Source: Candidatus Woesearchaeota archaeon (GTDB taxonomy: Archaea; Nanobdellota; Nanobdellia; SCGC-AAA011-G17; ARS1403). From it: a stretch of DNA of 45,662 nt. Both the position numbers and the translations under genes were made by a program. The notes beneath the pieces were generated by a model. The model was given only the letters and a program-made list of their open reading frames with translations. It did no database searches and was not told the DNA's origin. Positions 5,374-45,662 of the stretch are shown here, piece after piece. Each line of letters begins with the position of its first letter. Positions within the stretch are counted from its first letter, which is position 1. The stretch covers positions 1 to 45,662 of the forward strand of contig JAGVZL010000052.1 in the NCBI GenBank assembly GCA_018302505.1, written 5' to 3'.

Positions 5374-6018
<645 letters not shown>

Positions 6019-6369: not shown

Positions 6370-6403
6370 AAAATATATAAATAAGAAAGTATCTATAAAG
6401 AAC

Positions 6404-6982: not shown

Positions 6983-7029
6983 CTTATTTCAATTAATTTT
7001 ATATACTTGTTTCACTTTCCATTAAAATA

Positions 7030-7266: not shown

Positions 7267-7316
7267 AAATTCTAAGCAATTCTTAAAATATTTATTCAAC
7301 CAAAAAATTTAAAAAT

Positions 7317-7354
7317 AAGTGTATATTTGTTAGTTAAGTGTATATTTGTTAGTT
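7317..7354. repeat. Perfect 19-bp tandem duplication AAGTGTATATTTGTTAGTT x2
   Basis: 7317-7335 and 7336-7354 are identical. The repeat ends 2 nt before ATG 7357, and each copy carries a TATA-like TATATTT. Confidence 0.95.
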
Positions 7355-7356
7355 AA

Positions 7357-7740
7357 ATGGTAGAAAAAATAAACCATCAAGATATTTCCTTAGATAATGT
7401 GGCTGTTTTGACAGATATGGGCATTAATCAAAGACAAGCCCTAGAAACATTAGCTGTTTTTTCAGATTTAAGGATTGCAATGGCAGTAGTAGGGACTTAT
7501 AAACATCCTCCAACAAAATTGGGTCAAACTTTTGGAGATTATGATCATTATCTTACCCAAATTATATATGCAATATCAGGTATATCTCCCCCTTCTGATG
7601 AGCTTACTTTATATGAAGATGAAGTTGCAGAGCGGACTACAATGGTTTCAGAAAGAGAATTACATCAAGATCGTTATAGGGACAGACCTTGGAATTCTAG
7701 CCATTTTTATGAGCATTTAGCATCCAGATTAGGAGAATAA
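7357..7740 (+). CDS. Hypothetical protein (possible UBA-like N-terminal segment)
   Basis: 127 aa. DISLDNVAVLTDMGINQRQALETLAVFSDLRIAMAVV weakly resembles a UBA-type three-helix motif. Composition is non-backbone (Arg/Asp/His/Tyr-rich). Confidence 0.35.
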   Translation: MVEKINHQDISLDNVAVLTDMGINQRQALETLAVFSDLRIAMAVVGTYKHPPTKLGQTFGDYDHYLTQIIYAISGISPPSDELTLYEDEVAERTTMVSERELHQDRYRDRPWNSSHFYEHLASRLGE

Positions 7741-7941
7741 AACTTTTAAGCAAAAACTAAAACTTTTATTTTAATTAAAATCATTCTAAAAATGTAATAC
7801 TCTTCCTAATCTCTTAGGTAAAATGTCCCAAAACATGCCTAAAACGTAATATTTCCACCAAGTATTACATTCAAATTCAAATTTTGCCACTACAAGGCTT
7901 GTACATAAACTATATAAACTAATTCGTCTAATGCTAATTAG

Positions 7942-8784
7942 ATGAAAAATGATGAGGTGATAGAAAAAGTAGAAAGAGAATTAAAATTGTTAGGGCTTAG
8001 TCCTAGAACCATTAGCTCTTATCAACTATATCTTAAAGAACTATTCAAATTTACTGGAAAACTTCATTCAAGAATTCAGTTTAAAGATATTAAGCAATTC
8101 TTAGAATATTTAACTTTAGAAAAAAACTATTCCGGCTCAAGTTTAAACATCGTGAGATCAGCAATTTCTTTCTATTATGAGAAAATGTTAGAAAAATATC
8201 CTATTAGTAAGATAAGGGTTAAGAAAGTAGGCAAAAAACTTCCAGGAGTCTTAACAAAACAAGAAGTAAAAAAAATAATTGATGTAGCCGATAGCCTAAG
8301 AGATAAATTAATAGTTCAAATAATGTATTCCTGTGGTTTAAGGGTTTCCGAAGCTACAAACCTAAAATTAGAAGACTTAGATACCTCTAGAATGGTTGGC
8401 ATTATTAGGTCTGGAAAAGGAAACAAAGATAGGGCAATTCAATTAAACACACCATTAGTAAACAATATTGAAGCTTATCTCAAAACTAAAAAACTACCTT
8501 CAAAATTCATATTTTCAAAAACAAATGGAACACCTTACACTACTAGATCTTTTCAGATTATCATAAAAAAACTAGCAGAAAAAGCAGGAATAACAAAAAG
8601 GGTCCATTCCCATATATTTAGACATGCTTTTGGAACTCATTTAGTTGAAAAAGGAATAAACATTGTAAGGGTGCAGGGAATGATGGGTCATTCTAATTTG
8701 GAAACAACAAAAACTTATGTTAATCTATCTGCTGAGCAATTTAAAGGAGTTGGAAATTTATTGGATGATTTGGAAGAAGAATGA
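7942..8784 (+). CDS. Tyrosine recombinase / integrase (XerA/XerC-D family)
   Basis: 280 aa. Catalytic signature: GLRVSEATNL (Arg), KGNKDRAI (Lys), HSHIFRHAFGTHL (His-x-x-Arg), GHSNLETTKTYVNL (His...Tyr). Confidence 0.85.
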   Translation: MKNDEVIEKVERELKLLGLSPRTISSYQLYLKELFKFTGKLHSRIQFKDIKQFLEYLTLEKNYSGSSLNIVRSAISFYYEKMLEKYPISKIRVKKVGKKLPGVLTKQEVKKIIDVADSLRDKLIVQIMYSCGLRVSEATNLKLEDLDTSRMVGIIRSGKGNKDRAIQLNTPLVNNIEAYLKTKKLPSKFIFSKTNGTPYTTRSFQIIIKKLAEKAGITKRVHSHIFRHAFGTHLVEKGINIVRVQGMMGHSNLETTKTYVNLSAEQFKGVGNLLDDLEEE

Positions 8785-9323
8785 AAGACACAATATCTGT
8801 CAAGACAATAGAAATGGTGCAAGACATATTTCAACAAGGAGATGAAAGATATAACGATTATCAAAGTGCAATAGATGTTGCAGAATTCATAGATAATAAT
8901 GCAATAATAGTAGAGAAAAAAGAAATAGATGCTGTAAAAATTCCTAAAAAAGAAATAGACGAAATAAATGGACCTCAGCAATATTACAAAGCACTGGCAA
9001 AAAGAGTCTCAGATAAGAAAGGTTACAGATTTATAGGCTATGAAAAAAATTTCCCTGGCGGAATAGTTGATGCTCTAGCAGAAGATACTTCCGGAAATAA
9101 AATTGCCATAGAATGCTGTTCATGCAGGATTTCCAAGGCAATAAGCTACTTAGAAGAAGAAAACACTATTTTATGGATATTATCTATTTCAGATAAACCA
9201 ATAGAAGTTACAAAATACCCCCTATTTATAATCAAAAGAGGCCCAAATTGGGATGCTGTCTATAAAAGATATAATGGCTGGAGAATAAATTTAATTAAAA
9301 ACGTTAAAAGTCCAAGGGATTAA
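8781..9323 (+). CDS. Hypothetical protein coupled to the recombinase gene
   Basis: 180 aa. Its start overlaps the recombinase stop (ATGA at 8781-8784). The C-terminal half (GIVDALAED..NKIAIECCS) could be a degenerate PD-(D/E)xK fold, but I cannot support that firmly. Confidence 0.4.
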   Translation: MKDTISVKTIEMVQDIFQQGDERYNDYQSAIDVAEFIDNNAIIVEKKEIDAVKIPKKEIDEINGPQQYYKALAKRVSDKKGYRFIGYEKNFPGGIVDALAEDTSGNKIAIECCSCRISKAISYLEEENTILWILSISDKPIEVTKYPLFIIKRGPNWDAVYKRYNGWRINLIKNVKSPRD

Positions 9324-9598
9324 CTTTTTTTGTAAATATTGTCATGATGGTCATAATCAGTAAAATAAATGAAATCTTTTTGTTTATCATAAGAAAACAC
9401 AAGCACAAAAGATTTTTTAATATGTACACTTTTAAATAATTGTAATGGATTCCTCAGGTTCTTATAATGCTCAGGATCATCACAATTAATAATTTCTTTA
9501 ATTTTATTCAGAATCTGCCCATAAGCATCTTTATCTTTTTTTGAAATTTTCTCCAATGTTTTTTCTAGATTTTTGCTTAATTTATAAGGACGAGCCAT
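9320..9598 (-). CDS. RelE/ParE-superfamily toxin (type II TA)
   Basis: 92 aa. The pattern LEKISKKDKDAY..ILNKIKEI...HYKNL..PLQLFKSVHIKKSFVLVFSYD....IYFTDYDHHDNIYK matches RelE/StbE-like toxins. It lies 1 nt downstream of a small antitoxin-like ORF. Confidence 0.6.
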   Translation of the reverse strand: MARPYKLSKNLEKTLEKISKKDKDAYGQILNKIKEIINCDDPEHYKNLRNPLQLFKSVHIKKSFVLVFSYDKQKDFIYFTDYDHHDNIYKKS

Positions 9599-9599
9599 T

Positions 9600-9845
9600 T
9601 TAACCCGACTCTATTTTCTTTCTCAATTCTTCTATAGATCTAAAAGTTTCACCATAACCTTCTTTCTCAATTCTCTTTATTTTTTCAATATATTCAGGCC
9701 TTAACTCAGGTTCTAGAAGTTCTTCTCCATAGCCCATAGTTACTAGTTCTATTGCTTCTGACTTGTCTTTCAAATTATGCTTTGCTTTTACTATGTTTAA
9801 TATATGATTTGCATTCTTGCTAATGTTTATTATTGCCTGTACCAT
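9600..9845 (-). CDS. Putative antitoxin (DUF2683-like archaeal family)
   Basis: 81 aa. MVQAIINISKNANHILNIVKAKHNLKDKSEAIELV...LEPELRPEYIEKIK resembles the archaeal DUF2683 / RHH-like antitoxin pattern. It sits immediately upstream of the RelE-like ORF. Confidence 0.5.
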   Translation of the reverse strand: MVQAIINISKNANHILNIVKAKHNLKDKSEAIELVTMGYGEELLEPELRPEYIEKIKRIEKEGYGETFRSIEELRKKIESG

Positions 9846-9881
9846 ATTAACATGATATTAATATAATATTTATAAAGTTTT

Positions 9882-10082
9882 CTACACACTATCATAACCA
9901 CATAAAACAATATCTGGTTTTTTAATACCTTTAAAATATTTGCAGATTGAGACATTTTTAACAGCGCATTTATGTTTATTCGTATTTTCTTCTTCATTCC
10001 AGGGGCATTTATCCTGTTTCCAGGAAACATCTTTTTGTGTTATTAGATCAATATCCATGTTTGCACCTTTCAGTTGTTTCAT
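9882..10082 (-). CDS. Small Cys-containing hypothetical protein
   Basis: 66 aa with 4 Cys (KCPW, HKCAV, SICKY, VLCGY). It is on the same strand as the TA pair and upstream of it. Confidence 0.3.
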   Translation of the reverse strand: MKQLKGANMDIDLITQKDVSWKQDKCPWNEEENTNKHKCAVKNVSICKYFKGIKKPDIVLCGYDSV

Positions 10083-10144
10083 AGAATTGTCCTAAATTAA
10101 CAAATCTTAAAAACTTTCTTGTCTTATAAAATTCTGATGTTAAA

Positions 10145-10300
10145 ATGAATATGGTAGATGTAATATCTTTCGTAGTTTTGTGGATTATAGCCAGTTTGAT
10201 CTGGGCCATATGGTTGGATGGAGTTTATACACCGATAGCAGGAGTAATTACCGCAGGTATAGCTTCTGGCGGATTTAAATTAATATTCCATAATAAATAA
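10145..10300 (+). CDS. Possible small membrane protein (not in ORF track)
   Basis: My own translation gives MNMVDVISFVVLWIIASLIWAIWLDGVYTPIAGVITAGIASGGFKLIFHNK (51 aa, two hydrophobic segments). It ends 1 nt before the MazG-like ATG. Promoter spacing is not canonical, so support is weak. Confidence 0.25.
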   Translation: MNMVDVISFVVLWIIASLIWAIWLDGVYTPIAGVITAGIASGGFKLIFHNK

Positions 10301-10301
10301 A

Positions 10302-10661
10302 ATGGACAAAAAAACAAATCTCCACGAATTAAAAGAAAAAATAAAGAAATTTTGTGAAGAAAGAGACTGGGATCAATATCACAATGCAAAAGAGTTATCT
10401 ATCGGGATTATTACAGAGGCTTCTGAATTATTGGAACATTTCAGATTCAAATCAGAAAAAGAAATAGAAGAAATGTTCAAAAACGAAAAGAGAGAACAAA
10501 TTTCAGAGGAATTAATAGACACTCTTTACTTTATCTTGAGATTCGCACAAAAATACAATATAGATTTAACAATCGAATTAAATAAAAAGATGGAAAAGAA
10601 TCATAAAAAATATCCAATAGACAAAATCAAGGGAAGCAATAAAAAATATACTGAAATATGA
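10302..10661 (+). CDS. mazG: MazG-like nucleoside-triphosphate pyrophosphohydrolase (all-alpha NTP-PPase, DCTPP1-like)
   Basis: 119 aa. It carries the typical ERDWDQYHNAKELSIGIITEASELLEHF and EELIDTLYFILRFAQKYNIDL..ELNKKMEKNHKKYP metal-binding helices. The TATA-like TTTAAATTAA ends 19 nt upstream. Confidence 0.8.
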   Translation: MDKKTNLHELKEKIKKFCEERDWDQYHNAKELSIGIITEASELLEHFRFKSEKEIEEMFKNEKREQISEELIDTLYFILRFAQKYNIDLTIELNKKMEKNHKKYPIDKIKGSNKKYTEI

Positions 10662-12535
10662 GACTCTACGAAGACGCAGTTAAAGCATTCAAAGAAGATG
10701 TAACACAAAATAAGATAGCAGATAAGATTTCAAATAGATATCAGGATTATTATAAAAAAAAAGCAAGTATTTCAGAAGTTAGATCTTGGACTAATTCTTT
10801 AAATTTTGTAAAAAACGTCTTAGAATACGCACCCATTGAAGAAAATAAGATTATTGTTGAATATGAATTACCTTACTCGGAAAAAAGAATAGATGTTTTA
10901 ATATTTGGAAAAGATGCACAAGGAAATGAAAATATTGTAGTTATAGAACTAAAACAATGGTCAAATGAAAATGTAGATGATTCTGAGCATGAAGGTAATG
11001 TAAGGGTAGATTACGGAAAAGCTAAGGTGGAGTTGCCTCATCCATCTTTACAGGTAGAAGGGTATTGCTGGCATCTAAGGGATTTCTTAACTGTTTTTGA
11101 TGAAAAACCACAAATCTTACTAAATGCTTGTATTTATTGTCATAATTATAATAAAGGAGAAAATGAAGTTCTTTATTTGCCCAAATTCAAAAAAGACCTT
11201 GAAACTTATCCGGTCTTCTCAAAACAAGAAATGAAAGACCTTGGAGAATTTCTTAAAACAAAATTATCCTCAGACTCAGGCTTAGAAGTTTTTGGAAGAT
11301 TCACCCACAGCATTTTACGACCTTCTAAAAAATTAATGGAACATACAGGAGAAATGATTAATGAACAAAAAATATTCAACTTAATTGATGAACAAATTAC
11401 TTCCTATAATGCAATTATGCATCAAGCTAAAAATTTAGCTCAATCAAAAGAAAAATCCGTTATAATAATTAAAGGCGGACCTGGAACCGGAAAATCTGTA
11501 ATAGCCTTAGAAGTAATGGGGGAGTTATTAAGAAGAGAAATTAGTGTTATCCATGCAACAGGTTCTTCAGCATTTACAAATACTTTAAGAAAAATTCTCG
11601 GACCCAGATGTGCAAACCAATTTAAGTTCTTCAATAGTTTTATTGATAAATCAAAATTTAAAGAAAATGAATTCGATGTTTTAATTTGCGATGAAGCACA
11701 TAGAATTAGAAAAACAAGCGATAGTATGTATACACAAAAACATCTTAGAACAGGAGAACCGCAAATAAATGAACTTATTAGGGTAGCTAAATTAATTATC
11801 TTTTTTATAGATGAACACCAAGTTGTTAGACCTAATGAACTCGGAAGTGTTAATTTAATAAAAAAAGCGACAGAAACTTTTGATGCTAAAATTTATGAAA
11901 TGCCGGAATTAAAAACACAGTTTAGATGTGGTGGCTCAGGAAATTATTTAGAAAAAATTGAAAAAGTATTAAGGATCTACGAAGAAGGTGCAGACATCGA
12001 ACTCGATGAAGAAACAAAAATGGAATTCAAAATTGTAGATTCTCCTCACGAATTAAAAAGATTAATTGACCAAAAGAATAGAGAAAAGAAGAATTCAGCA
12101 AGAATGGTTGCAGGGTTCTGTTGGCCATGGAGTAAACCGAATAGGGATGGTTCTTTAGTTAATGATGTTAAAATAAATGATTTTGAAATGCCTTGGGAGA
12201 ATAAAGATGAATTTTGGAGATGGGCAACCGAAGATTCCGGAATGGATCAAGTTGGGACAGTCTACACTTCTCAAGGATTTGAATTTGATTATATTGGAGT
12301 TATTTTCGGAAATGATCTAGTCTGGAATAAAGAAACAAAAAGCTGGTACGCAAAACCTGAAAATTCTTGTGATAGTGCTGCTAAGAGGGGAAATGATGAA
12401 TTCGCAAAACATCTAAAAAACGTTTATAGAGTTTTATTAACAAGAGCCCACAAAGGAGTCTTTGTTTATTTCATTGACGAAACTACTAAAGAATATTTTA
12501 AAGAGAATGCTAAGAAGCTAGGATTTAAAGTCTAA
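10658..12535 (+). CDS. DUF2075-type protein: N-terminal PD-(D/E)xK-like nuclease + Schlafen-group-3-type SF1 helicase/ATPase
   Basis: 625 aa. The N-terminus has EKRIDVLIFGKD...VVIELKQW (D...ExK). Walker A is GGPGTGKS and Walker B is LICDEAHR. The C-terminal VYTSQGFEFDYIGVIFG and YRVLLTRAHKGVFVYF are typical of DUF2075. The start overlaps the MazG stop (ATGA 10658-10661). Confidence 0.8.
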   Translation: MRLYEDAVKAFKEDVTQNKIADKISNRYQDYYKKKASISEVRSWTNSLNFVKNVLEYAPIEENKIIVEYELPYSEKRIDVLIFGKDAQGNENIVVIELKQWSNENVDDSEHEGNVRVDYGKAKVELPHPSLQVEGYCWHLRDFLTVFDEKPQILLNACIYCHNYNKGENEVLYLPKFKKDLETYPVFSKQEMKDLGEFLKTKLSSDSGLEVFGRFTHSILRPSKKLMEHTGEMINEQKIFNLIDEQITSYNAIMHQAKNLAQSKEKSVIIIKGGPGTGKSVIALEVMGELLRREISVIHATGSSAFTNTLRKILGPRCANQFKFFNSFIDKSKFKENEFDVLICDEAHRIRKTSDSMYTQKHLRTGEPQINELIRVAKLIIFFIDEHQVVRPNELGSVNLIKKATETFDAKIYEMPELKTQFRCGGSGNYLEKIEKVLRIYEEGADIELDEETKMEFKIVDSPHELKRLIDQKNREKKNSARMVAGFCWPWSKPNRDGSLVNDVKINDFEMPWENKDEFWRWATEDSGMDQVGTVYTSQGFEFDYIGVIFGNDLVWNKETKSWYAKPENSCDSAAKRGNDEFAKHLKNVYRVLLTRAHKGVFVYFIDETTKEYFKENAKKLGFKV

Positions 12536-13189
12536 CCAGTTCCAAAAACTATCTTTACCAATTATAACATGGTCTAAAACTAATATTCCTAATATTTCAC
12601 CGGTTTCTATGATTTTTTTTGTGATTTCTATATCCTCTTCTGATGGTGCAGGATCTCCGGATGGATGATTATGTACAAGCATTATACTAAAAGAATTTTC
12701 TTTAATAGCAGCCTTAAAAACTTCTCTTGGATGTATCAAAGAAGCATTCAAAGTACCAATACAAATCCTATGAACTTTATTAACACAATTTTTAGTATCT
12801 AAGCAAACTACATACAAATGCTCTTCATTATAGTCTTTAACTCTATTAACAAACATATCAAAAATATCTTTAGCACTTTTAATCTCTTTTTTATTAAACC
12901 CACCATTAACTAATGTTCCATATCTTTTGCATAATTGAATTAAGCTTAAAATCTTTAAAGCAGCTACTTTATCATTATTGCATTCTTTTTTAAGAACTTC
13001 AAAGCCAATATCATAAATCTTATTCAAGTTATATTTTTTTAATAATTTATTAGTAAATTCTAAAATACTGGCATCTTTAACTTTTCCAAGAACAATAGCC
13101 AATAATTCATAATCGCTTAAAACCCCAGCACCATATTTAATTAACCTCTCACTAGGCCTGTCATAAAAAGCTATTTCTTTAATCTTCAT
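12518..13189 (-). CDS. radC: RadC-like JAB/MPN domain protein
   Basis: 223 aa. It has the JAMM motif MLVHNHPSGDPAPSEEDIEITKK, the N-terminal RPSERLIKYGAGVLSDYELLAIVLG HhH-like region, and a TATA box at canonical spacing. Confidence 0.85.
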   Translation of the reverse strand: MKIKEIAFYDRPSERLIKYGAGVLSDYELLAIVLGKVKDASILEFTNKLLKKYNLNKIYDIGFEVLKKECNNDKVAALKILSLIQLCKRYGTLVNGGFNKKEIKSAKDIFDMFVNRVKDYNEEHLYVVCLDTKNCVNKVHRICIGTLNASLIHPREVFKAAIKENSFSIMLVHNHPSGDPAPSEEDIEITKKIIETGEILGILVLDHVIIGKDSFWNWLDFKS

Positions 13190-13278
13190 TTATCTAAACT
13201 TAAATTTTTGCTTTAAAAAGATTAATAGAATTTAAACTATATTTTAGAATTAACAAAAGTAACACCATGGAGACTTCT

Positions 13279-13677
13279 TTATTCAGAAAAACTCAATTTC
13301 CAATCAGTTTCTCTTTGAGTAATATCTTCCAAATGTTTAGGGTCTATTCCAATTCTATAATCCCCACTATTTCCAAAAAATCTAACATTTTTTCTATCTA
13401 TATCTACTTCCGCCCTGCCAGCCCCACTCATCCTATATTCAATAGCGGGTTTTCCAAGCCACGCCCCTCTTCTAAAGTTCATTGATGGGATAGAATCTCC
13501 ACTACTCCTCCCCCTAATCCATTCGCAATCATAAACAATATCATGTTCTATTAAAATCCTATGGAGTATTTGGCCATGCATTGTTCCTTTATCTCCAAAC
13601 AATAAATCAGGAGTACCATTAACATATACCTGAACTATTTTATATTCTCCAGATCGAACAGGCCATAAAACTCTCAT
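13279..13677 (-). CDS. Hypothetical protein (non-backbone composition)
   Basis: 132-aa ORF that is Arg/Gly/Asp-rich. I recognised no family. I preferred it over the overlapping plus-strand ORF 13267..13485, which is low-complexity. Confidence 0.4.
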   Translation of the reverse strand: MRVLWPVRSGEYKIVQVYVNGTPDLLFGDKGTMHGQILHRILIEHDIVYDCEWIRGRSSGDSIPSMNFRRGAWLGKPAIEYRMSGAGRAEVDIDRKNVRFFGNSGDYRIGIDPKHLEDITQRETDWKLSFSE

Positions 13678-13908
13678 TCTAGAGGGTGGTAAATTATGGC
13701 ATCTAAAGATAATTCTAAAACCTCTAAAGCATAAGAGATAGAAGAAATAGCAGAAGAGGCTGGGAAATTACTCAAGGAAGCCAAAAGATTATTCTTTCTT
13801 TGATTTCTTACCAACTTTAGAAGTTCTTTCTAACAAAGAGATAAGTTTTAAATCAATTTTTCTGTTAGAACCTATATTTTTAATAAGCAGATTGAATTGA
13901 TATTTACT

Positions 13909-14275
13909 ATGAAAACTCTCTCACTAAAACAGCCTTACGCAGAATTAATTTTACAAGGAAAGAAAAAAATAGAACTAAGAACTTGGAATACTAAATTTAG
14001 AGGAGAATTCTATATTCACGCTTCATTAACTGCTGATAAAAAAAGCAATGGAAAGATTCAGCTTTAAAGAATTGCCTTTAGGATATATCTTAGGAAAAGC
14101 AACTTTAGTTGATGTTAAAAAATATGAAACTGAATGACAGCATAAAAAAGACAAAGATTTGCATCTAGCTTCATCCTCCTGGGGAAACTATGGTTTTATC
14201 TTAAAAAATCCAAAAAGAATTGCTCCAATAAAAACAAAAGGAAAATTAAATTTCTGGGAATATAAGATTCAATAA
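13909..14275 (+). pseudogene. ASCH-domain gene disrupted by a frameshift and an in-frame TGA
   Basis: MKTLSLKQPYAELILQGKKKIELRTWNTKFRGEFYIHAS (frame 1) breaks at an A7 run (14038-14044). Frame 2 continues AMERFSFKELPLGYILGKATLVDVKKYETE, then TGA (14135-14137), then QHKKDKDLHLASSSWGNYGFILKNPKRIAPIKTKGKLNFWEYKIQ. Together these reconstruct a full ASCH fold. Confidence 0.7.
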
Positions 14276-17999: not shown

Positions 18000-18827
18000 A
18001 TGGATAAAGAAGAATTTTTAAAAAAATTAGAAGCAGAATTAAAAATTTCAAGCAATTCCACACATACAATCCGGAACTATTTATCTTCTAATAAATTTTT
18101 ATTGGATTTTGCAAATAAGACTCCGGAGGAGATTACTCATGAGGATGTTAAATCCTACTTAGCTGAAAAACTAAATAACGCTTCCTCAATGACTAAGATC
18201 TTATTTTTATCCGCAATTAAATATTCTTTCTCAAATATTCTTAAAAAAGATATAACAATAGATATTAAAAGACCGAAAAAAGAAAAGAAAATTCCTTCTG
18301 TTCTATCAAAAGAAGAAGTTAAAAGTTTAATGGATTCAATTCAAAATAAAAAATCAAAGTTGATGGTTTCTTTAACTTACGCTGCAGGTTTAAGGGTTTC
18401 AGAATTGGTAAATTTAAAGACCCATGATTTTGACTTTACTCAAAAAACAGGGCATATTAGGCAGGATAAAGGAAGAAAAGACAGAATCTTTAATATCCCG
18501 GAGAATTTATTGGAAGATTTGCAAAAACAAGCTGAAAAACAAAAAGAAAAGAACCAATTATTTTTATTTTCAAGTTTTAAAGGTCAGATGACCACAAGAA
18601 ATATTCAAAAAATAGTTTCAAAAGTAGCTAAGAAAGTAGGGATAGAAAAGGAAGTTCATCCTCATACATTAAGACATTCTTTCGCGACGCATTTATTGGA
18701 AAACGGAACTGATATCAGGCACATTCAAAAGCTATTAGGTCATAGTTCGTTAAATACAACTCAAGTTTATACAAATATTTCAGCAGAGCAGATAAAGAAG
18801 ATTAAAAGCCCAATAGATAGTCCTTAA
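18000..18827 (+). CDS. xerA: Tyrosine recombinase XerA-like
   Basis: 275 aa. Motifs: GLRVSELVNL, KGRKDRIF, HPHTLRHSFATHL, LGHSSLNTTQVYTNI. Size and N-terminal SAM-like domain are typical of archaeal XerA. Confidence 0.8.
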   Translation: MDKEEFLKKLEAELKISSNSTHTIRNYLSSNKFLLDFANKTPEEITHEDVKSYLAEKLNNASSMTKILFLSAIKYSFSNILKKDITIDIKRPKKEKKIPSVLSKEEVKSLMDSIQNKKSKLMVSLTYAAGLRVSELVNLKTHDFDFTQKTGHIRQDKGRKDRIFNIPENLLEDLQKQAEKQKEKNQLFLFSSFKGQMTTRNIQKIVSKVAKKVGIEKEVHPHTLRHSFATHLLENGTDIRHIQKLLGHSSLNTTQVYTNISAEQIKKIKSPIDSP

Positions 18828-37151: not shown

Positions 37152-38356
37152 GAAATATCCGTAACTGTTTCCCAAGGGAAATATCCATCAACAGGCTCCC
37201 TGCCAAAATGTCCACCACTAGCAGTTACTAAATATATCGGTCTCTTTAAATCAAAACGCTCAATAATTGCTCGCGGTCTAAGGTCAAATATCTCTCTTAA
37301 TCTTACTGCAAGTTCATTATCATAACTTTCTCCTTTATCTGTCATAACTTCAAAATCATCCGGTTCAGCTTTTCCAATAGTATAAGCTACCCTTACTTGA
37401 CATTTCCTTGCAAGCCCGTTAGCAACAACACTCTTTGCCATATGTCTCATCATATAATGCCCAGACCGATCAACCTTACTAGGATCTTTTCCACTAAAAG
37501 CCCCGCCACCATGAGGAATCCTCCCACCATAAGTATCCACAATTATTTTTCTTCCAGTAACACCGGAATCGCCCAATGGACCGCCGATTTCAAATCTTCC
37601 AGTTCCATTAATATTCTGACTTTCCATATGTGAGAAACCTAATCCCTTAGAAGCCTTCAAAATAACATCTTCCATCAAAACAATTCGCAATTCTTCATAT
37701 CCAACATCCTCATCATGTTGTGCAGCAAGAGTAACATTCTCTAAATAAAATTCTCCTTCTTCTTCCATTCGAATTGTAACTTGCGATTTACAATCAGGCC
37801 TTAACCAAGGAGCAGCTCCACTTCTCCTATATTCATTTAATCTATCAATTAAATTTCTTGCTAAAATATAGGACATAGGCATAAGTTCTCTAGTTTCATC
37901 ACAAGCAAAACCATACATCATTCCTTGATCTCCAGCACCCTGTTCATGGCATTGGCTAATATTTACACCCCGTGCAATATCTTGACTTTGGGTGGTTATA
38001 TGAGTCCTAATAACACATCTTTCAGGATCAATTCCTTCTTCAGCACTACGATATCCAATATTTCTAATAGTCCCTCTTACCAAAGCTTCAATATCAAATT
38101 CAGCTCTAGTAGTGATTTCACCAACCAAATTTACAGTCCCAGATTTGGTCCTATTCTCACCACAATCCTCTAAATAAGTTTCATCATCATCTGTAAACCA
38201 TTTCCCATCTCTTAACCCTGCTTTAACAGCAGTTTCAAGTGCAACTCTAGATTCCGGATCTTGATCTAAACATGCATCAAGTACAGCATCAGAAATTTGG
38301 TCGCAAAGTTTATCAGGATGTCCAGCACCGACGAATTCACTAGTAAATCTTCTCAT
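37148..38356 (-). CDS. metK: S-adenosylmethionine synthetase, bacterial/eukaryal MetK type
   Basis: 402 aa. It has GHPDKLCDQISDAVLDA, GAGDQGMMYGFA, GGGAFSGKDPSKVDRSG and ASGGHFGR. GC is visibly higher than in the neighbours. Confidence 0.92.
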   Translation of the reverse strand: MRRFTSEFVGAGHPDKLCDQISDAVLDACLDQDPESRVALETAVKAGLRDGKWFTDDDETYLEDCGENRTKSGTVNLVGEITTRAEFDIEALVRGTIRNIGYRSAEEGIDPERCVIRTHITTQSQDIARGVNISQCHEQGAGDQGMMYGFACDETRELMPMSYILARNLIDRLNEYRRSGAAPWLRPDCKSQVTIRMEEEGEFYLENVTLAAQHDEDVGYEELRIVLMEDVILKASKGLGFSHMESQNINGTGRFEIGGPLGDSGVTGRKIIVDTYGGRIPHGGGAFSGKDPSKVDRSGHYMMRHMAKSVVANGLARKCQVRVAYTIGKAEPDDFEVMTDKGESYDNELAVRLREIFDLRPRAIIERFDLKRPIYLVTASGGHFGREPVDGYFPWETVTDIS

Positions 38357-38444
38357 AAAAATAAGATAAACTAATATCTTTATAAATATTTATTTAATAC
38401 AAAGATTAGAAACAAATAAATATGTTACTATTTTAGAATAGTTT

Positions 38445-40214
38445 ATGATTATATTACAAAAAACAGCAATTTTTTTCATATTTTCGCTTTTTTTAGTAAA
38501 TATAGCCTATGCAGAGATACAAATAACAGAAGTAATGTTTGACCCGAACTGTTCAGATTCTTATTGCGAGTATATAGAGCTTTATAATAATGCTTCTGAC
38601 TCGGTTAATATAACAAGCTGGACTATAGGTGATTTGAGTTCAAATGACACTTTGGAAGAAGCAATTATCCCAAGCTACTCTTTTGCCTTAATAACAGACC
38701 AGGATTCAAGAATTTATAATTATTATACGATTCTTTTCCCAATAACCTGGATTTATGTGGATGACAGTTCAATAGGAAGCGGATTAGGCACGCCAGAAAC
38801 TATTTCACTGTATGATGAATCTCTTAATTTAATAGACCAAATGAATTACAGCGGAACAACAAACGGAGATAGTTTAAGTTTAGTCAATGGAATATTTCAG
38901 CAATCAACCCCCACTCCTGGAAGCCAAAATGAAGACGAAGAAACAGCGGATTATTCTAAGATCTCAGTAACAGAATTTCTGCCAAATCCCGAAGGGGATG
39001 ATGGCGCTACTACTCCTAATGGAGAATGGATTGAGCTTTACAATTCAGGAAATTTAAATTTGGATTTGATAGGGTTAGAGTTTTATGACAATGTTGGTTC
39101 AGACCCAGATATAATAGTATCAAATACTTCTACTTTAGATGGGACAATAATAACATCAAATTCATATAAGGTTGTTTACACAAACGGAATTTCAAGTTTC
39201 TTAAATAATGATGGATATGAAAAAATAACTTTAAAGGATATTTTTGGAGAAATTATAGATGAAATAACATACTCGGATTCGGATGAAGGAGTTTCATGGT
39301 CTTTGTCAGAGGGAAAATGGCAGAGAACAACACCCACTCCCGGATATAAAAATGAGGATAATAAAACTTCAACTCAGTCAGAACTGAAAATCGAAGAAAT
39401 TTATGATTTAGGGAGCGATAAGAAAGCTGAATGGGGGGATATAATAAGACCTAAGATTTTCGCCTACAAAGGGAATACTAACAAAGAAGTAGTTTGGATA
39501 TGGATAGAAAATGATGAAGTAAGAGTAACTAAAAAAAGCAAGTTTGATTTATACCAAAAATTCCAAAATACAACCTTAACATACCCATTAATGATACCCG
39601 ATAATTGCAATAGTGAATTTTTAAGCGGAAATTATAAACTAATTGTTGATGGGCTGGATGCAAGAGATGAAGCCATTTTAGAAATAAGGGACAAGCCGTT
39701 ATGTAAAGACTCAGAAAAAGCACCAAGAGTAAGTAATCTGGAATATTCTTTTTCATCTATTTCAAAAGAAGTTGTTTCGGAAGAAAAATTTACAACCGAA
39801 ATTTTATTAAAAAATAATTTAGATGAGGAAATAAATTTAGATTTGTGGTCTTATCCTTATTTTGGAAGCCAGCAGTATGTGGTGTCGGATGAAAAGGAAA
39901 ATTTGCAAAAAGTCTCAGTGATGCCTAAAGAAGAGAAGGTTATAAAATTAGAGAATATCTTGCCGGAAGTAAAGAGGGACACAATAAACTTTAAAGTAAA
40001 ATTGCAAAAAGAAGGTCTTAAAACAGCATATGAATTGAAAGAAACATTAAAAGTTAAGCAGAATTCAAAACCTTCAGAAACACTTAAAAACCCTATTACT
40101 GGCTACACGGTGTATGAAAGTAGCGGTGAAAAAACCAAGCGTTCAGCCATTTTCATATTTAATGGCTTATTGGTAATGCTGTTCATCTTTGTACTGATAA
40201 AAAATGGAACTTAA
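38445..40214 (+). CDS. Secreted, C-terminally anchored protein with two lamin-tail (LTD) domains
   Basis: 589 aa with a signal peptide. LTD signatures are ITEVMFDPN..CEYIELYN and VTEFLPNPEGDD...GEWIELYNSG. Each module ends in TPTPG(S/Y)(Q/K)NED. A C-terminal TM helix is present. Confidence 0.7.
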   Translation: MIILQKTAIFFIFSLFLVNIAYAEIQITEVMFDPNCSDSYCEYIELYNNASDSVNITSWTIGDLSSNDTLEEAIIPSYSFALITDQDSRIYNYYTILFPITWIYVDDSSIGSGLGTPETISLYDESLNLIDQMNYSGTTNGDSLSLVNGIFQQSTPTPGSQNEDEETADYSKISVTEFLPNPEGDDGATTPNGEWIELYNSGNLNLDLIGLEFYDNVGSDPDIIVSNTSTLDGTIITSNSYKVVYTNGISSFLNNDGYEKITLKDIFGEIIDEITYSDSDEGVSWSLSEGKWQRTTPTPGYKNEDNKTSTQSELKIEEIYDLGSDKKAEWGDIIRPKIFAYKGNTNKEVVWIWIENDEVRVTKKSKFDLYQKFQNTTLTYPLMIPDNCNSEFLSGNYKLIVDGLDARDEAILEIRDKPLCKDSEKAPRVSNLEYSFSSISKEVVSEEKFTTEILLKNNLDEEINLDLWSYPYFGSQQYVVSDEKENLQKVSVMPKEEKVIKLENILPEVKRDTINFKVKLQKEGLKTAYELKETLKVKQNSKPSETLKNPITGYTVYESSGEKTKRSAIFIFNGLLVMLFIFVLIKNGT

Positions 40215-40602
40215 AATTAAAGCAATTATAGAAATCTTGGGAAAACCAAAAGACCACGTAGAAAAAACAATAGCTAATGTTGTAGAAGAGCTGAAAAAAA
40301 GAGAAGGTCTAACACTAATTAACGAAAAAATAGCAAAAACTAAAAAATTAGAAACTTTCTTTTCTTCTTATGTAGAAGTGGAATTAAAGCTTTCCACCAT
40401 GGATCAATTAATAGATTTTTGTTTTGATTTCCTGCCAAGCAATATAGAAATTATAGAACCTGAAGAGATGAATTTAGATTCACATTTATTAGCAGAATAT
40501 ATGAATGACCTATTAGCAAAATTACATCAGCAAAGTATGATTATAAGAAACATGCATGCTGAAAATTTGGTAATGAAGCAAAAACTCGGATTAACTAAAT
40601 AA
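40204..40602 (+). CDS. Hypothetical cytoplasmic protein
   Basis: 132 aa. It overlaps the upstream gene by 11 nt. I recognised no family. Confidence 0.35.
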   Translation: MELKIKAIIEILGKPKDHVEKTIANVVEELKKREGLTLINEKIAKTKKLETFFSSYVEVELKLSTMDQLIDFCFDFLPSNIEIIEPEEMNLDSHLLAEYMNDLLAKLHQQSMIIRNMHAENLVMKQKLGLTK

Positions 40603-42417
40603 TTATTTTTTCCCCAATAATCTCTCTAAGTCTTTCATACTTTGGTCTAGATCTTTTTCTATGCTACTGACTATTCCAGGTTTTTTTCTCGGGGTACTTG
40701 CGACTCTCGGTTGATAATTCTGGGGTTTGGACTGATTCAATCTAGGAGTATATTTTGCTTGAGGACCTGGTTTATTTCCAAACTTTAATTTTAACAATCC
40801 TTTTTTATATGCTAAGAACCCTCCACCAAATAAAATTATTAACATTAATAACACCATTAAAGACCAAAATAAAACACTCCTTCCTTCGTCACTGCTCCCG
40901 CTAGTTGAAGTGCCTGTTGTTCCAGTGCCGCCTAAATCTACTTCGCCTCTTGAAGAAGTATCGCTTACAGGACATCCATCACCGCTAACATCTATGCATT
41001 GCCCGATAGCATCTCTTTTACCTTCACAGCCCTCAGCTGTAGTGCAGATATTGCCTAAACTGCTAGCGTCACTATCCCCGCTAGGATCATTTCTAGTAGT
41101 TATTCCAACAGTTTCATCCCAGGGGTCCCGGTCATCTTCATTGTCTACTCCATCTCCGTCAATATCACTGTCTTCTTTATTTACAAATCCATCCCTGTCA
41201 TAATCATCATCACCATCTAAAACTCCATTATTGTTTGTATCAGGATTTCTGGAATTATTATCGATACCATTCAGCAACCCATCCCCATCAATATCACTGT
41301 CATCACTATCACAGGTATTATCTCCATCTAAATCAGGACAGCCTGAAGAGCTTGAAGTATAACTGCCGCCGTACATTACTAAAGCAGTCTGTTCAACATT
41401 ACAATTTGGTTTTGGCCAGCATCCATCATTATGTCTTCTTGAAGCAACCCAATTATCCACACCGCTAATAATACTATTAGGTTTTAATAAATTATAAATT
41501 AAAACAGTTGTTGTTAGGTCTGCAGTTCCCCAGAACCCAGCTGAATTTTTTTCTTGAGCTAACGAAGTTAAATATTGATTGTCATTTGTTACTTTAAACA
41601 AAAATGCCTTCTCCTTTAACCCTAAATTGCTTTGTCCAACCAGCCAGCTGGGATCGCCGCTCTTGCCAATTTTATTTAGAGTATAAAGTACATATCCGGT
41701 AGTTTCAGTATCGCAACTTCCGCTTCTATATGTTGCACCCCAGCATGGGTCTCCAAATGAAACAGTTATATTCTTTTTTCCATGCTCTTCCTGTTTTATA
41801 AAATAATTCTCAACACCACTAACATCTTTTTTATTTATCAGACTTAACACAGGGGTGCTGCCCAAACTACTGCAGTCCAAATTAAGGCTCGAAGTTGTAG
41901 AAGTTAAAATACCAGAATCAACATTAAACCATGGAACATATCCCTGGCTTGTATCTATAGAAACACCAAGACTAGAATCTAAATCATAGTTAGTCAAAAC
42001 ACAGCTTCCAGCAACACTCGATACAACCTGCACAAACCATTGGTTGCTTGCAGTTGGCAATTCTCCTGTAAAAACAATACTTCTGGAATTTAATAACCAA
42101 GTTCCGGCAGTATTAACTATATTAGCATTATTCCCCACTTCATGCAATGCTAAAACTGCAACAGCCGTATCCTTTACATTACAGCTATTGGTTAACATAC
42201 AATTCTCTAAAGAGATTATTAAACTCCTTGAGCCATTTAAAACTAAATTTTCATAACCCTGCTCTTTATCCAAAGCTAATATACTATAAGCAGTTTCTCT
42301 AATATTTCCCCAAGAACCCTGAGTATTCCTATCAGCTATCCAATCTGCCTCGCTAGAAGCCCCTGCAGTACCAATTAAAATTATTAAAATGAAGAGTAAT
42401 ATCCCCTTTTTATACAT
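40603..42417 (-). CDS. Surface protein: prenyltransferase/terpene-cyclase-like alpha-toroid repeats + thrombospondin type-3-like Ca-binding repeats + TM anchor
   Basis: 604 aa with a signal peptide. Repeats of the type QGSWGNIRETAYSILAL and NVKDTAVAVLAL are present. An Asp-rich tract reads DLDGDNTCDSDDSDIDGDGLLNGID...DYDRDGFVNKEDSDIDGDGVDNEDD. It ends with a C-terminal TM helix and a basic tail. Confidence 0.6.
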   Translation of the reverse strand: MYKKGILLFILIILIGTAGASSEADWIADRNTQGSWGNIRETAYSILALDKEQGYENLVLNGSRSLIISLENCMLTNSCNVKDTAVAVLALHEVGNNANIVNTAGTWLLNSRSIVFTGELPTASNQWFVQVVSSVAGSCVLTNYDLDSSLGVSIDTSQGYVPWFNVDSGILTSTTSSLNLDCSSLGSTPVLSLINKKDVSGVENYFIKQEEHGKKNITVSFGDPCWGATYRSGSCDTETTGYVLYTLNKIGKSGDPSWLVGQSNLGLKEKAFLFKVTNDNQYLTSLAQEKNSAGFWGTADLTTTVLIYNLLKPNSIISGVDNWVASRRHNDGCWPKPNCNVEQTALVMYGGSYTSSSSGCPDLDGDNTCDSDDSDIDGDGLLNGIDNNSRNPDTNNNGVLDGDDDYDRDGFVNKEDSDIDGDGVDNEDDRDPWDETVGITTRNDPSGDSDASSLGNICTTAEGCEGKRDAIGQCIDVSGDGCPVSDTSSRGEVDLGGTGTTGTSTSGSSDEGRSVLFWSLMVLLMLIILFGGGFLAYKKGLLKLKFGNKPGPQAKYTPRLNQSKPQNYQPRVASTPRKKPGIVSSIEKDLDQSMKDLERLLGKK

Positions 42418-42480
42418 TGAATCACCTTTTAATATCCATTATAGTTAAGATTATATAAATCTATTTCTATATAAATTTTT

Positions 42481-43026
42481 ATGAAATTAACCAATTTAGT
42501 GTATCTTTCAAGAGGAAAAAGAAGCAATGTTTATACAACGATTTATAAGAAAAAGAAAGTGGCGGTAAAATATTCTCATAGAGCGGAGATAGAAGCTTAT
42601 TGGTTAAAAAAACTTTCAAAACTAAATTTTATCCCTAAACTAATCTCTTCAGACAATAAAAGGATAATCTATGAATTTATTGAAGGAGAAACCATTGATA
42701 AATATTTAGAAAATTCTAAGAATCCAATTCTAATCTTAAAACAAATTCTAAAACAATGTTATGAGCTTGATAAATTAAAAATAAATAAAAAAGAATTAAC
42801 AAATCCTTACAAACATATTTTAATTAAAAACAAGAAATCTAAAATGATTGATTTCGAAAGATGTTATGAAACAGATAATCCAAAAAATGTTACACAGTTT
42901 TGTGAATATTTAATGAGGAAAAAAATAATAAATAGAAAAAATTTAACACCATTGTTAAAAAATTATAAAAAGAATAAAACTAAGAAAAATTTCGAAAAAA
43001 TTCTGAGATTTAATACACAACATTAA
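42481..43026 (+). CDS. Small protein-kinase-like (Bud32/RIO-like) protein with a degenerate catalytic loop
   Basis: 181 aa. It has the Gly-loop region LSRGKRSNVY, a VAVK Lys, and IDFERC in place of DFG. The HGD of the catalytic loop is replaced by NKKE. Confidence 0.45.
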   Translation: MKLTNLVYLSRGKRSNVYTTIYKKKKVAVKYSHRAEIEAYWLKKLSKLNFIPKLISSDNKRIIYEFIEGETIDKYLENSKNPILILKQILKQCYELDKLKINKKELTNPYKHILIKNKKSKMIDFERCYETDNPKNVTQFCEYLMRKKIINRKNLTPLLKNYKKNKTKKNFEKILRFNTQH

Positions 43027-43388
43027 ACAATTGCTTTCTCTGAAGGTAGAAATTCATTAACTGCTAGAATACCATCTTGATTTTTCATGCCAAGGTCTTG
43101 TTTGGTCAAGAACCAGGCAAATTTCAAGAAATTCTGGGTAATTGCATTATCTAAATTTAACTTATACATATCAGACTTTCCGACTTTTCTTGTCTTAATA
43201 ATTACCCCTCTTTCCAAAAATTCACCAAAAAAACTTTTCAGGGAATTATAACTGATGTTTGCTTCTCTTGCCATATCCGTCATATTAAAATCAAAAAAAT
43301 GATTTCCAATTAAAAAATCCAAAAATCTCAATTTTGGTGTATCTCCCAAATATTCCAAAAATGCCGATTTGTTTTTCATATTTTTCAT
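43023..43388 (-). CDS. Winged-helix transcriptional regulator
   Basis: 121 aa. LRFLDFLIGNHFFDFNMTDMAREANISYNSLKSFFGEFLERGVIIKTRKVGKSDMYKLN is a wHTH pattern. Confidence 0.55.
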   Translation of the reverse strand: MKNMKNKSAFLEYLGDTPKLRFLDFLIGNHFFDFNMTDMAREANISYNSLKSFFGEFLERGVIIKTRKVGKSDMYKLNLDNAITQNFLKFAWFLTKQDLGMKNQDGILAVNEFLPSEKAIV

Positions 43389-43480
43389 GATATTTCCTTA
43401 ATTTATAAAACTTTCTATCCTAGATGTTTAAACTGTCAAAACTAGAAACATTTAAATAAAACATAACTTTCAGAGAATTA

Positions 43481-43738
43481 ATGAAAAAAGAGAAAGCGCA
43501 ACTTATGTTCAAACTTGCTTATTCAAAAAAGAATTGAGGAGCAAAATATGATAGGCTAGAACACTTTAAGAGATTTTCAAATTTAAAAGAAATAGTAAAA
43601 GAATTAGAAAATGTTGGATGGCTGATTGTAAGAAAAAAATCAAATTACACAGGAATCTCTCTCAATCCAATGTTCAAAAAAGAAATTATTGAGTTTATCG
43701 AAGAGCAAATGCCAGAAATTAGAGGGCAGGTAAAATAA
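43481..43738 (+). pseudogene. Small wHTH-like ORF with an in-frame TGA (43535-43537)
   Basis: My own translation gives MKKEKAQLMFKLAYSKKN, then a stop, then GAKYDRLEHFKRFSNLKEIVKELENVGWLIVRKKSNYTGISLNP... in the same frame. There is no in-frame ATG/GTG/TTG shortly after the stop. Confidence 0.3.
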
Positions 43739-43808
43739 CAAAATAAACCAATGGAAAACCAAGAAATAGAAATTGGATTAAAAAATAAAATCCATATTCT
43801 TAATACAA

Positions 43809-45662
43809 TTATTTATTCGAAATTCTTGTTTTCCTTCTAGGTTTTTTCTGTTGTTTCAGCATTCTTAATTTTCTCAAAGAAAAATTAACAGGGTTCTTGC
43901 ATTTACTGCAAATTTCTTCAGGGCATTTAATCCCCAAATCTGCATAATAAGCGGGGTTTGTGCAGTTAGGGGGCAAGATTTTTTCTTTATGTTGCCTGTG
44001 CCAGTTTAGTTGAGAAATAATATACCCTTCTTTCAAAGGCTCTCTGTTTTTTTGATTCCATTCTTTAACAATTTTTTCAATAGAATCCATGTCCCAGCTC
44101 AAACTCTTTAAGAAATTTAATAATATAAACAAAAATCTTTTCTTGCCATCCCCCATACCTTTCAATCCCATTTGGATGCAGGGGGGCCAATGTTCAGCCT
44201 TGACTGCCATTTGTGGCGTTTCAAACTCTCTTTTGGTTTTAATTTCTCCTTCAGGAAGGATAAACCTTTTTTTCTTTAAAGCATCAAATGCCTGCATTAT
44301 TAATTGCCCGGCTTCATAACCTTCAACTTTCTTAGGTAAAAAATCTCTATCAGTTTTCACATTTTCAATTTTAGCTATATTTAAATTAAAATTCTTTATA
44401 TTATTAGGATATATAGGAATACTCACAAGTCCTTTCTTTTCATTAAGGGAGTAAGAAGCTCGATATAAATGTCTTGAAGCAATCAAAACAGAATCTATTC
44501 CAACAACGGAAAATGGGTTAAAGATATTCTTTTCAAACAATTCTTCTTTTTTCTTATCAACAGCTTTAGCAATATCTTCTATTTTAGATAAATTAAGTAT
44601 TCTTTCTCTTAAAGGGTCTTTAATCATATTTTTTAGATATTCGGCAATTACTCTAACTCCTTCAGGGAATAAATCTTTAGTTTCTTTGCCGTCTACAGAA
44701 GGAGGAAAAGATTCAAAAGGAATGCCTATATGAAATCCACTACCTCCAGAAAATTTAACACCAATATTCTTGATATCGTGAAATTTTAAAGCTTCAACTA
44801 GTAGTTCTGTAGTTAGTTTAGAATATTCTAAAAACTTAGTATCTACATCTAAACAGTTATGAGTAAAAATTCCGTCTCCATGTAAAAAATTATGATATTT
44901 TTCAGTTTCTATATCATAAAATAATCCCCTATATTCAAAAACTTCTATTTTTTTAATTTTGATAGGAAATAAATCACTTTTAAGTATTTTGGATAAATAT
45001 TCATTAGCAGCTAATTTTGCTAATTTTTTATTCAGTCCAGATTTTAATCTTATAGCCCTATACAAATTACTTTGAATAATCCTATTTTTTAATAGTTTTA
45101 TCTTAGTTTTATCTAAAAAAGGTGGATAGATATTATGAATTGAAGGATGATTTATCTTCTTTCTGGTAAACTTTATATTTTTCTTATCTATAAAAGAGAT
45201 GCCACAACAACGATTAAATCTTTCAATACCTTCCTCTCCAGATATCCTAATAACGTTCTTTCTTTCACCATGTCTTGAGATATTATGATGAATTCCCATT
45301 TTCAAAAATAGAAATATTAGTCCATTCATCAAATCCCTACTCGCCGTTAAGGAAGATATACTAATTCCATAATTATTTGATTCTAATCTTGGATGACCAT
45401 CTCCTGTAAAATATCCCGAAAGAATTCCTCCAACAAAACCTGTAGGTGCAGAATATACCCAATAAGGAATTTTTTTACAAGTGGATAAATGACCAAAACC
45501 AAGAATATCTTTATAGATTATCGGAAGTAATGTATCACTAAATCTAACTTTTAAAGATTTATCTTTTTTATGTTTATGACTTATATTATATTTATAATTT
45601 GTTTTAAAAATTTTGTTAGTTAAATCTATTACCTCTTTAGCTTCTTTAATTTCTGAAATATT
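43809..45662 (-). CDS. priS: DNA primase, PriS catalytic domain fused to a PriL-like Cys-rich C-terminal domain, interrupted by an intein (5' end outside the window)
   Basis: The ORF track starts at TTG 45332, but my translation shows the frame stays open to the window edge. C-extein motifs are LDVD (motif I), FSGGSGFH (motif II) and IDSVLIASRHLYRASYSLNEKKG (motif III). These are followed by HWPPCIQ...PPNC...KCPEEICSKC. Confidence 0.8.
   Translation of the reverse strand, partial: NISEIKEAKEVIDLTNKIFKTNYKYNISHKHKKDKSLKVRFSDTLLPIIYKDILGFGHLSTCKKIPYWVYSAPTGFVGGILSGYFTGDGHPRLESNNYGISISSLTASRDLMNGLIFLFLKMGIHHNISRHGERKNVIRISGEEGIERFNRCCGISFIDKKNIKFTRKKINHPSIHNIYPPFLDKTKIKLLKNRIIQSNLYRAIRLKSGLNKKLAKLAANEYLSKILKSDLFPIKIKKIEVFEYRGLFYDIETEKYHNFLHGDGIFTHNCLDVDTKFLEYSKLTTELLVEALKFHDIKNIGVKFSGGSGFHIGIPFESFPPSVDGKETKDLFPEGVRVIAEYLKNMIKDPLRERILNLSKIEDIAKAVDKKKEELFEKNIFNPFSVVGIDSVLIASRHLYRASYSLNEKKGLVSIPIYPNNIKNFNLNIAKIENVKTDRDFLPKKVEGYEAGQLIMQAFDALKKKRFILPEGEIKTKREFETPQMAVKAEHWPPCIQMGLKGMGDGKKRFLFILLNFLKSLSWDMDSIEKIVKEWNQKNREPLKEGYIISQLNWHRQHKEKILPPNCTNPAYYADLGIKCPEEICSKCKNPVNFSLRKLRMLKQQKKPRRKTRISNK
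44856..45662 (-). mobile_element. Intein with LAGLIDADG homing-endonuclease domain (partial; N-terminal splicing region lies beyond the window)
   Basis: C-terminal splicing blocks: VFEYRGLFYDIETEKYHNFLHGDGIFTHN, followed by the +1 Cys (TGT at 44853-44855). The endonuclease motif GILSGYFTGDGH lies at about 45393-45431. At least 269 codons of intein are visible. Confidence 0.75.

Follow-up and report, generated by a model that had tools for sequence, protein, structure and literature searches.

Which element is joined to the primase gene at the end of contig JAGVZL010000052.1 (Candidatus Woesearchaeota archaeon, assembly GCA_018302505.1) is the question addressed here. The contig was analysed over its full length of 45,662 nucleotides (nt), and this whole stretch is referred to as the window. 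On its minus strand it carries what we read as the C-terminal half of a canonical class-1, LAGLIDADG-bearing intein of 510 amino acids (aa), inserted in-frame within motif I of a DPANN fusion primase, the host organism being a low-GC, Woesearchaeota-like DPANN archaeon from groundwater. We assign this reading, intein and host organism taken jointly, a probability of about 0.93.

The intein portion in the window and its missing half

Read from the window edge at 45662, the minus-strand frame meets its first stop codon at 43809-43811, so that the TTG at 45332, listed as the start, lies inside the frame. Translation of this frame gives the splice-junction peptide ...VFEYRGLFYDIETEKYHNFLHGDGIFTHN↓CLDVDTKF... 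(↓ marks a junction), with block G in the form GDGIFTHN↓CLDVD. When the window fragment alone was compared with intein models, TIGR01443 (intein_Cterm) scored 30.6 bits (cut-off 15.6, E 2.7e-7) and PF14528 (LAGLIDADG_3) scored 37.5 bits (cut-off 22.5, E 2.9e-9), and these matches are far beyond chance. Across the window fragment and the full precursor described below, the PF14528 score is 37.5-42.9 bits. PF14890 (Intein_splicing) reached 34.0 bits in the window fragment, slightly below its cut-off of 35.8, because only half of the domain lies inside the window; the full-length protein of the sibling contigs scores 83.2 bits with the same model. The parts of the intein that are present in the window are the following.

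44856-45662, minus strand: C-terminal 269 of the 510 intein residues (intein residues 242-510, precursor residues 334-602)
45393-45428, minus strand: second LAGLIDADG motif of the homing endonuclease domain, GILSGYFTGDGH, bearing the acidic Asp421 (full-protein numbering)
45045-45155, minus strand: conserved segment INHPSIHNIYPPF ... NLYRAIRL between the endonuclease core and block F
44883-44942, minus strand: intein block F, VFEYRGLFYDIETEKYHNFL, including the block-F Asp D583 (PF14890 and TIGR01443 alignments)
44856-44879, minus strand: intein block G, GDGIFTHN, with penultimate His and terminal Asn at the C-terminal splice junction
44853-44855, minus strand: Cys+1, first residue of the C-extein and predicted trans-thioesterification nucleophile, at a hydrophobic position of primase motif I

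Conservation was assessed in an alignment of six inteins inserted at this position, which is called site a below. The motif GILSGYFTGDGH, which includes GILSGYFTGDG, aligns with the second LAGLIDADG motif of PI-PkoII (PDB 2cw7), and its residues G420-D421-G422 are invariant. It is the second of two such motifs, the first (KLIGYYLSEG) lying just beyond the window edge. In block F the residues Y582, D583, T586, N591 and F592 are invariant, and blocks F and G end in ...YDIETEKYHNFLHGDGIFTHN↓C with D583, H601, N602 and C603 all invariant (penultimate His at 44859-44861, terminal Asn at 44856-44858). The segment at 45045-45155 is distinctive and is kept across site-a inteins in the form INHPS.H..YPPF ... 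NLYRAIRL, with the invariant columns H505, P506, S507, H509, P513, P514, F515, N532, L533, R535, A536, R538 and L539. It may be a DNA-binding or 'stirrup'-like region.

A preliminary description of the window had already taken the primase frame as open to the edge with TTG 45332 internal, and had named blocks F and G with a terminal His-Asn and a +1 Cys, a LAGLIDADG motif upstream of them, and the range 44853-45662. All of this was recovered: the junction is read at 44853-44861, the motif is that at 45393-45428, and the range equals the intein portion of the window plus the Cys+1 codon.

The missing half was supplied by six independent metagenome contigs (L001-L006), obtained from different samples and assemblers in groundwater and other metagenome assemblies, which match the window up to base 45662 with 99.0-99.9% identity and without gaps. 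The closest of them, L001, is 99.885% identical at 6149-14002 to window positions 37809-45662 (7,854 bp, no gaps). A homologue search returned the protein encoded by these contigs (P0001, 950 aa), which differs at 2 positions from the 617 residues encoded in the window. On the sibling contigs the frame continues for 333 further codons upstream to an ATG (999 nt, in L001 at 5150-6148) and is uninterrupted over 2,853 nt. Window and siblings also share their downstream neighbours, which are ORFs (open reading frames) of 121, 181 and 604 aa followed by MJ0538-like, LTD and S-adenosylmethionine synthetase genes.

In P0001 an N-extein of 92 aa ends in ...IRKGWDL and is followed by Cys1 (Cys93, CLPSFEKILI), which lies beyond the window and is conserved in five full-length alleles. 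Block B reads IHVSDDHPLL; its His is conserved in five of five alleles, with Ser instead of the usual Thr. The full intein thus spans precursor residues 93-602, and all splicing residues are present: Cys1, block B Ser-x-x-His, block F Asp, penultimate His, terminal Asn and Cys+1. Both acidic residues of the LAGLIDADG motifs, Glu321 and Asp421, are kept about 100 residues apart and are invariant in the six alleles. The GC content drops clearly within the single ORF, from 34.8% in the N-extein to 24.8% in the intein (L001 5426-6955), with 31.6% in the C-extein. The N-terminal junction and the N-extein were thus found beyond the window edge, where the preliminary description had placed them; it had also allowed for an upstream sequence without N-terminal splicing domain or N-extein, or for a frame closing nearby, and neither was seen on the sibling contigs.

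A further fragment, P0121 (326 aa, with no contig on record), carries a near-identical N-extein and intein with an internal deletion between two KIK repeats (junction …KIKQDKIK↓YKNTNVSKF…) that removes block B. Either decay of the intein or a fault in assembly could account for this.

Insertion within motif I of a monomeric primase

Removal of residues 93-602 from P0001 leaves 440 aa, and since this is also the length of the intein-free primase P0003, to which the spliced sequence is 94.3% identical, the insertion is precise. In the alignment the intein forms a single clean block between GWD(A/L) and (I/C)LDVD. A syntenic empty site was found on contig L007, where the intein-free P0005 (76% identical) is encoded in the same gene neighbourhood, with prefoldin upstream and genes for a 603-aa protein, an MJ0538-like protein and LTD downstream. 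The empty site was compared at the DNA level with L007, P0003 having no DNA on record. The intein-free DNA of L007 reads ...GGTTGGGATGCA↓ATACTTGATGTGGAT... at the site, and 41 of 60 nt around it are identical, which is too divergent for defining the endonuclease target. The host protein contributes the following features to the window.

44283-44855, minus strand: part of an archaeo-eukaryotic primase (AEP, PriS-like) catalytic domain in the C-extein, by PF01896, AlphaFold2 (AF2) and Foldseek
44841-44849, minus strand: catalytic D-V-D of AEP motif I (hhhDhD), where PF01896 starts
44730-44756, minus strand: motif II (KFSGGSGFH), within the C-extein
44469-44504, minus strand: motif III with RH segment (VGIDSVLIASRH), within the C-extein
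43809-44282, minus strand: region like the PriL C-terminal (Fe-S) domain, fused to the catalytic domain, with conserved C828, C900, C913, C918 and C921

The intein interrupts motif I itself, at a point two residues ahead of the first catalytic Asp, and Cys+1 takes the place of a hydrophobic residue of the motif. Among 120 listed homologues, the 84 intein-free sequences that match GW[DE] carry I, V, L, M or F at the +1 position, or D in two cases, and never Cys, whereas Cys occupies this position in all five intein-bearing sequences that match the pattern and in the fragment P0002. An AF2 model of the intein-free protein (predicted local distance difference test, pLDDT, 87.1) puts the site at the start of the beta-strand 92-97, which carries D95 and D97. 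Placing the site by a PDB sequence search was also tried and given up, the intein-free primase alone having matched nothing; because PDB sequence and profile searches were insufficient, the site was placed by motif conservation, Pfam coordinates, AF2 and Foldseek.

Thirty-five intein-free homologues show no variation at D95, D97, H134 and D213, residues that correspond to AEP motifs I, II (sxH) and III (hD), motifs that have been defined as hhhDhD/E, sxH and hD/E for the Nanoarchaeum equitans primase NEQ395 (PMC10250227). Against PF01896 (cut-off 26.8 bits), the intein-free P0003 scores 29.2 bits and the window fragment only 23.0 bits. Foldseek searches with the intein-free AF2 model returned Prim-PolC, LigD polymerase, Pyrococcus PriS and human PRIM1 with probability 1.00. 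The C-extein matches the PriL model PF04104 at 19.4-21.5 bits, slightly under the cut-off of 22.4, and also the PriL model NF002588. A profile of the 35-sequence family matched Pyrococcus abyssi PriL (9f26_B, E 7e-6) and human PRIM1 in PDB, in the C-terminal parts only, and C318, C390 and C408 are invariant in the same 35 homologues. Given the matches of the C-extein and of the family profile to PriL, the host is, as far as sequence comparison goes, a monomeric PriS-PriL fusion primase of DPANN cluster II and not a classical PriS. Such a monomeric primase replaces the two-subunit enzyme in DPANN cluster II according to Raymann et al. 2014, as cited in bioRxiv 10.64898/2026.06.17.729505. All named homologues are metagenome-assembled genomes (MAGs) of Nanoarchaeota or Woesearchaeota. 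The window has a GC content of 30.9% and contains the housekeeping genes LonB, ArgRS, SerRS, class-I LysRS and TopA.

The preliminary description had seen a precise insertion immediately before motif I of an archaeal PriS. The precision holds against the intein-free primases (a single clean gap, 440 aa in both P0001 after excision and P0003, and synteny on L007), and so does the adjacency to LDVD. The placement before the motif had to be revised, since Cys+1 itself belongs to motif I, and the archaeal primase host stands with the amendment that it is the fused form.

Distribution, predicted splicing and alternative explanations

When the intein alone served as query in a word-indexed homologue search, no more than 4 proteins came back and known relatives were absent, probably because the Lys/Ile-rich intein sequence swamped the word filter. 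A full HMMER scan with a precursor profile was used instead, in which 1.84 billion representatives were covered and the best 150 matches listed. It recovered about 536 representatives of DPANN monomeric primases at E<1e-30. Site-a entries among the best 150 are P0006 and the fragments P0002 and P0121. Two further insertion sites were found. Site b lies before motif II (S-G-x-x-G-F-H; ...KF↓SVTG(D/E)TP...LLHN↓SG.KGFH) and is occupied in P0124, P0132, P0137 and P0158 among the best 150, and in P0062 from the homologue search. Site c lies in a conserved segment after motif III (P-Y↓S-x-x-E-K; ...PY↓SV.F.EPI...LLHN↓S(L/I)(H/N)(E/P)K) and is occupied in P0127 and P0197 among the best 150, and in P0015 from the homologue search. 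The inteins at sites b and c have Ser1, Ser+1 and LAGLIDADG domains. By these junction assignments the DPANN monomeric primase is invaded at three places in or beside its catalytic motifs.

The site-a inteins are 34-63% identical in pairwise comparison and their exteins 38-54%. Cys1, the block B His, D583, H601, N602, C603, E321 and D421 are conserved across the six alleles. Three GTDB species genomes with divergent site-a inteins are groundwater MAGs labelled Woesearchaeota or 'archaeon'. The extein of P0001 is 94% identical to the intein-free allele and 42-54% identical to other site-a exteins, and in the pair P0001/P0004 the inteins are 63% identical compared with 54% for the exteins. The patchy presence of the intein in the primase tree fits homing, recurrent loss, or both. 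Seven of the 25 differences between spliced P0001 and P0003 fall within 16 residues of the junction, and this clustering is a weak hint of co-conversion.

Class-1 intein chemistry and LAGLIDADG homing are well established, and on this basis a course of events can be proposed. Splicing would begin with an N-S acyl shift at Cys1, after which trans-thioesterification would move the N-extein onto Cys+1. Cyclisation of Asn602 to a succinimide would free the intein, and an S-N shift would leave a primase of 440 aa reading GWDL-CLDVD, so that the metal-binding Asp pair would be assembled only in the spliced protein. The excised intein (59 kDa) would cut intein-free primase alleles at the sequence that encodes motif I, and repair from an intein-bearing copy would spread the element. 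Since the target codes for a catalytic motif that the enzyme cannot lose, the site would be stable.

Several points weigh against a canonical homing intein in this primase. The N-terminal half lies outside the window and comes from near-identical sibling contigs, not from the same molecule, and block B carries Ser where most inteins carry Thr. Splicing and endonuclease activity are both predictions from sequence. Inteins and exteins have a similar divergence, which in these comparisons does not point to a recent transfer between the lineages sampled, and some of these lineages could have an endonuclease that no longer works. Finally, the AF2 model of the full 950-aa precursor, built from a 6-sequence alignment, is poor (pLDDT 59.9), and its fold matches are therefore supportive only.

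The near-equal identities of inteins (34-63%) and exteins (38-54%) are also what vertical co-divergence would give, and they suit an intein that still splices while its endonuclease is no longer mobile, so that the element is inherited vertically and occasionally lost, precise deletion from an essential motif being rare. No intein-free allele with a ready-made +1 Cys occurs among the listed homologues that match the pattern, which agrees with this view as well. We nevertheless consider such an immobile intein unlikely: both LAGLIDADG acidic residues and many other endonuclease positions are invariant down to 34% identity, suggesting selection on the endonuclease; an intein-free allele of 94% identity exists beside the intein-bearing one; and the inteins of P0001 and P0004 are more alike than their exteins. 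An intein with a regulatory role is less probable still. Splicing would then be conditional, with for instance a disulfide between Cys1 and Cys+1 acting as a redox trap and the active site being completed under permissive conditions. All six site-a alleles have Cys at both positions, the insertion parts the Asp pair from the remaining motif-I strand, and redox-trapped or stress-sensitive splicing has reportedly been described for other replication inteins such as that of mycobacterial DnaB. Against this, no other configuration is as common among inteins as Cys1/Cys+1, close relatives of the host do without the intein, and the sequence data have no direct bearing on such regulation.

Because the element is cut off at the window edge, and because the P0121 copy of this intein has lost an internal stretch, one might suspect an artefact, either a chimeric assembly or a primase pseudogenised by a free-standing homing-endonuclease gene or another insertion. 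This we regard as highly improbable, since an identical, unbroken frame of 2,853 nt recurs in no fewer than six contigs that differ in sample and assembler, diverged forms of the intein occupy this site in three GTDB species genomes, the frame is free of stops, and the residues at the splice junction are both canonical and conserved. Three readings were considered and excluded because the frame stays open on many contigs and the HN↓C junction is canonical: a chimera of assembly, an endonuclease gene standing on its own, and a Hint or bacterial intein-like (BIL) domain that does not splice. The reading as a class-1 homing intein is preferred.

The active sites of replisome proteins are where inteins concentrate, and with insertions at three places in or beside its catalytic motifs the DPANN monomeric primase extends this pattern to the last major archaeal replisome enzyme. 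In Novikova et al. 2015 (PMC4760082) the archaeal 'Pri, primase' is shown in grey, among the key replisome proteins that lack inteins, and primase inteins appear there only in the unrelated bacterial DnaG. The 'primase' inteins of mycobacteriophages described in the literature are likewise in TOPRIM proteins. Literature searches (primase-intein, DPANN, archaeo-eukaryotic primase) gave no report of an archaeal primase intein, curated intein databases and subscription-only papers aside, and the word 'intein' does not occur in the NEQ395 paper (PMC10250227) or in a 2026 DPANN primase phylogeny. This agrees with the suggestion in the preliminary description that the insertion point may be new. On balance we favour the view that the DPANN primase hosts inteins at three independent sites, a, b and c, of which site a is undescribed, and that an AEP active site is here assembled only by splicing. 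The element itself is a canonical homing intein at an apparently undescribed site and host, with no new mechanism.

Intein-bearing primases are already present in public databases, where they are unnamed or called 'hypothetical protein'. Annotation pipelines label these 880-1,050-aa proteins hypothetical or miss their primase domain, the latter because the PF01896 score falls under the cut-off. Inteins need to be removed before DPANN phylogenies are built from primases. A mesophilic Cys1/Cys+1 intein with a new target could also serve as a splicing or endonuclease-specificity reagent.

Other features of the window and comparison with known systems

Downstream of the primase stop, about 420 nt (43389-43808) up to the next ORF contain no ORF of 60 aa or more, and this gap is conserved in the siblings, where gene calls are empty in L001-L004. 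The 604-aa ORF (40603-42417, minus strand) has an N-terminal signal-like segment, Asp-rich repeats of calcium-binding type (DLDGDNTCDSDDSDIDGDG...) and a transmembrane segment at the C-terminus. No Pfam family is recorded for this ORF in the sibling contigs, and its synteny beside the primase is conserved. Elsewhere in the window, two genes of the XerC/phage-integrase family (7942-8784 and 18000-18827, both plus strand, each about 150 bits to PF00589) bracket a Schlafen-group-3-like helicase gene (10658-12535, plus strand, PF09848, 296 bits). The bracketed stretch may represent either a defence island or an element that has integrated; a search for att-like direct repeats around both integrase genes found nothing convincing. 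Scans of the window for tRNAs and Rfam families gave no matches.

The closest solved relative by sequence is PI-PkoII (E 1e-11), the Pol-2 intein of DNA polymerase B of Thermococcus kodakarensis (2cw7/2cw8), with a match that spans both LAGLIDADG motifs and the C-terminal splice region. Foldseek searches with the precursor model were led by PI-PkoII (E 6.6e-16), TliVMA, PI-PfuI and PI-SceI, followed by mini-inteins and I-DmoI-type endonucleases. As in these four, the Hint domain of the primase intein is interrupted by an endonuclease with two LAGLIDADG motifs, and block F is preceded by an additional segment. The host of PI-PkoII is likewise a replication enzyme, but host and site differ (motif I of an AEP primase as opposed to a family-B polymerase motif), identity is only about 16%, and PI-PkoII stems from a hyperthermophile whereas the primase intein comes from a mesophilic, AT-rich DPANN archaeon.

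For the N-terminal Hint part of the intein, matches were obtained to PolII, RadA and CDC21 mini-inteins. The matches to the PolII inteins (P. abyssi PolII mini-intein 2lcj, Pho PolII 5bkh) have E values of 3e-6 to 1e-4; these inteins differ in extein and site, and the solved ones are mini-inteins without endonuclease. The intein of the DP2 protein on contig L011 of an uncultured archaeon has an endonuclease domain; over 405 residues its identity to the primase intein is 26%, and the FG.L.G.YL motif is common to both. As a separate observation, this intein of the PolD large subunit (L011 340-4998, plus strand) appears to end in ...GGLITID↓CDGDED, without the usual His-Asn.

Among primases, NEQ395 has a similar architecture, an AEP domain with hhhDhD, sxH and hD followed by a region like the PriL C-terminal domain in a chain of about 440 aa, whereas the present gene is interrupted by the 510-aa intein. 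The inteins of bacterial and phage DnaG/TOPRIM primases target a functionally equivalent replisome enzyme. As the DnaG/TOPRIM fold is unrelated to that of AEP primases, the insertion sites differ and the invasions are independent.

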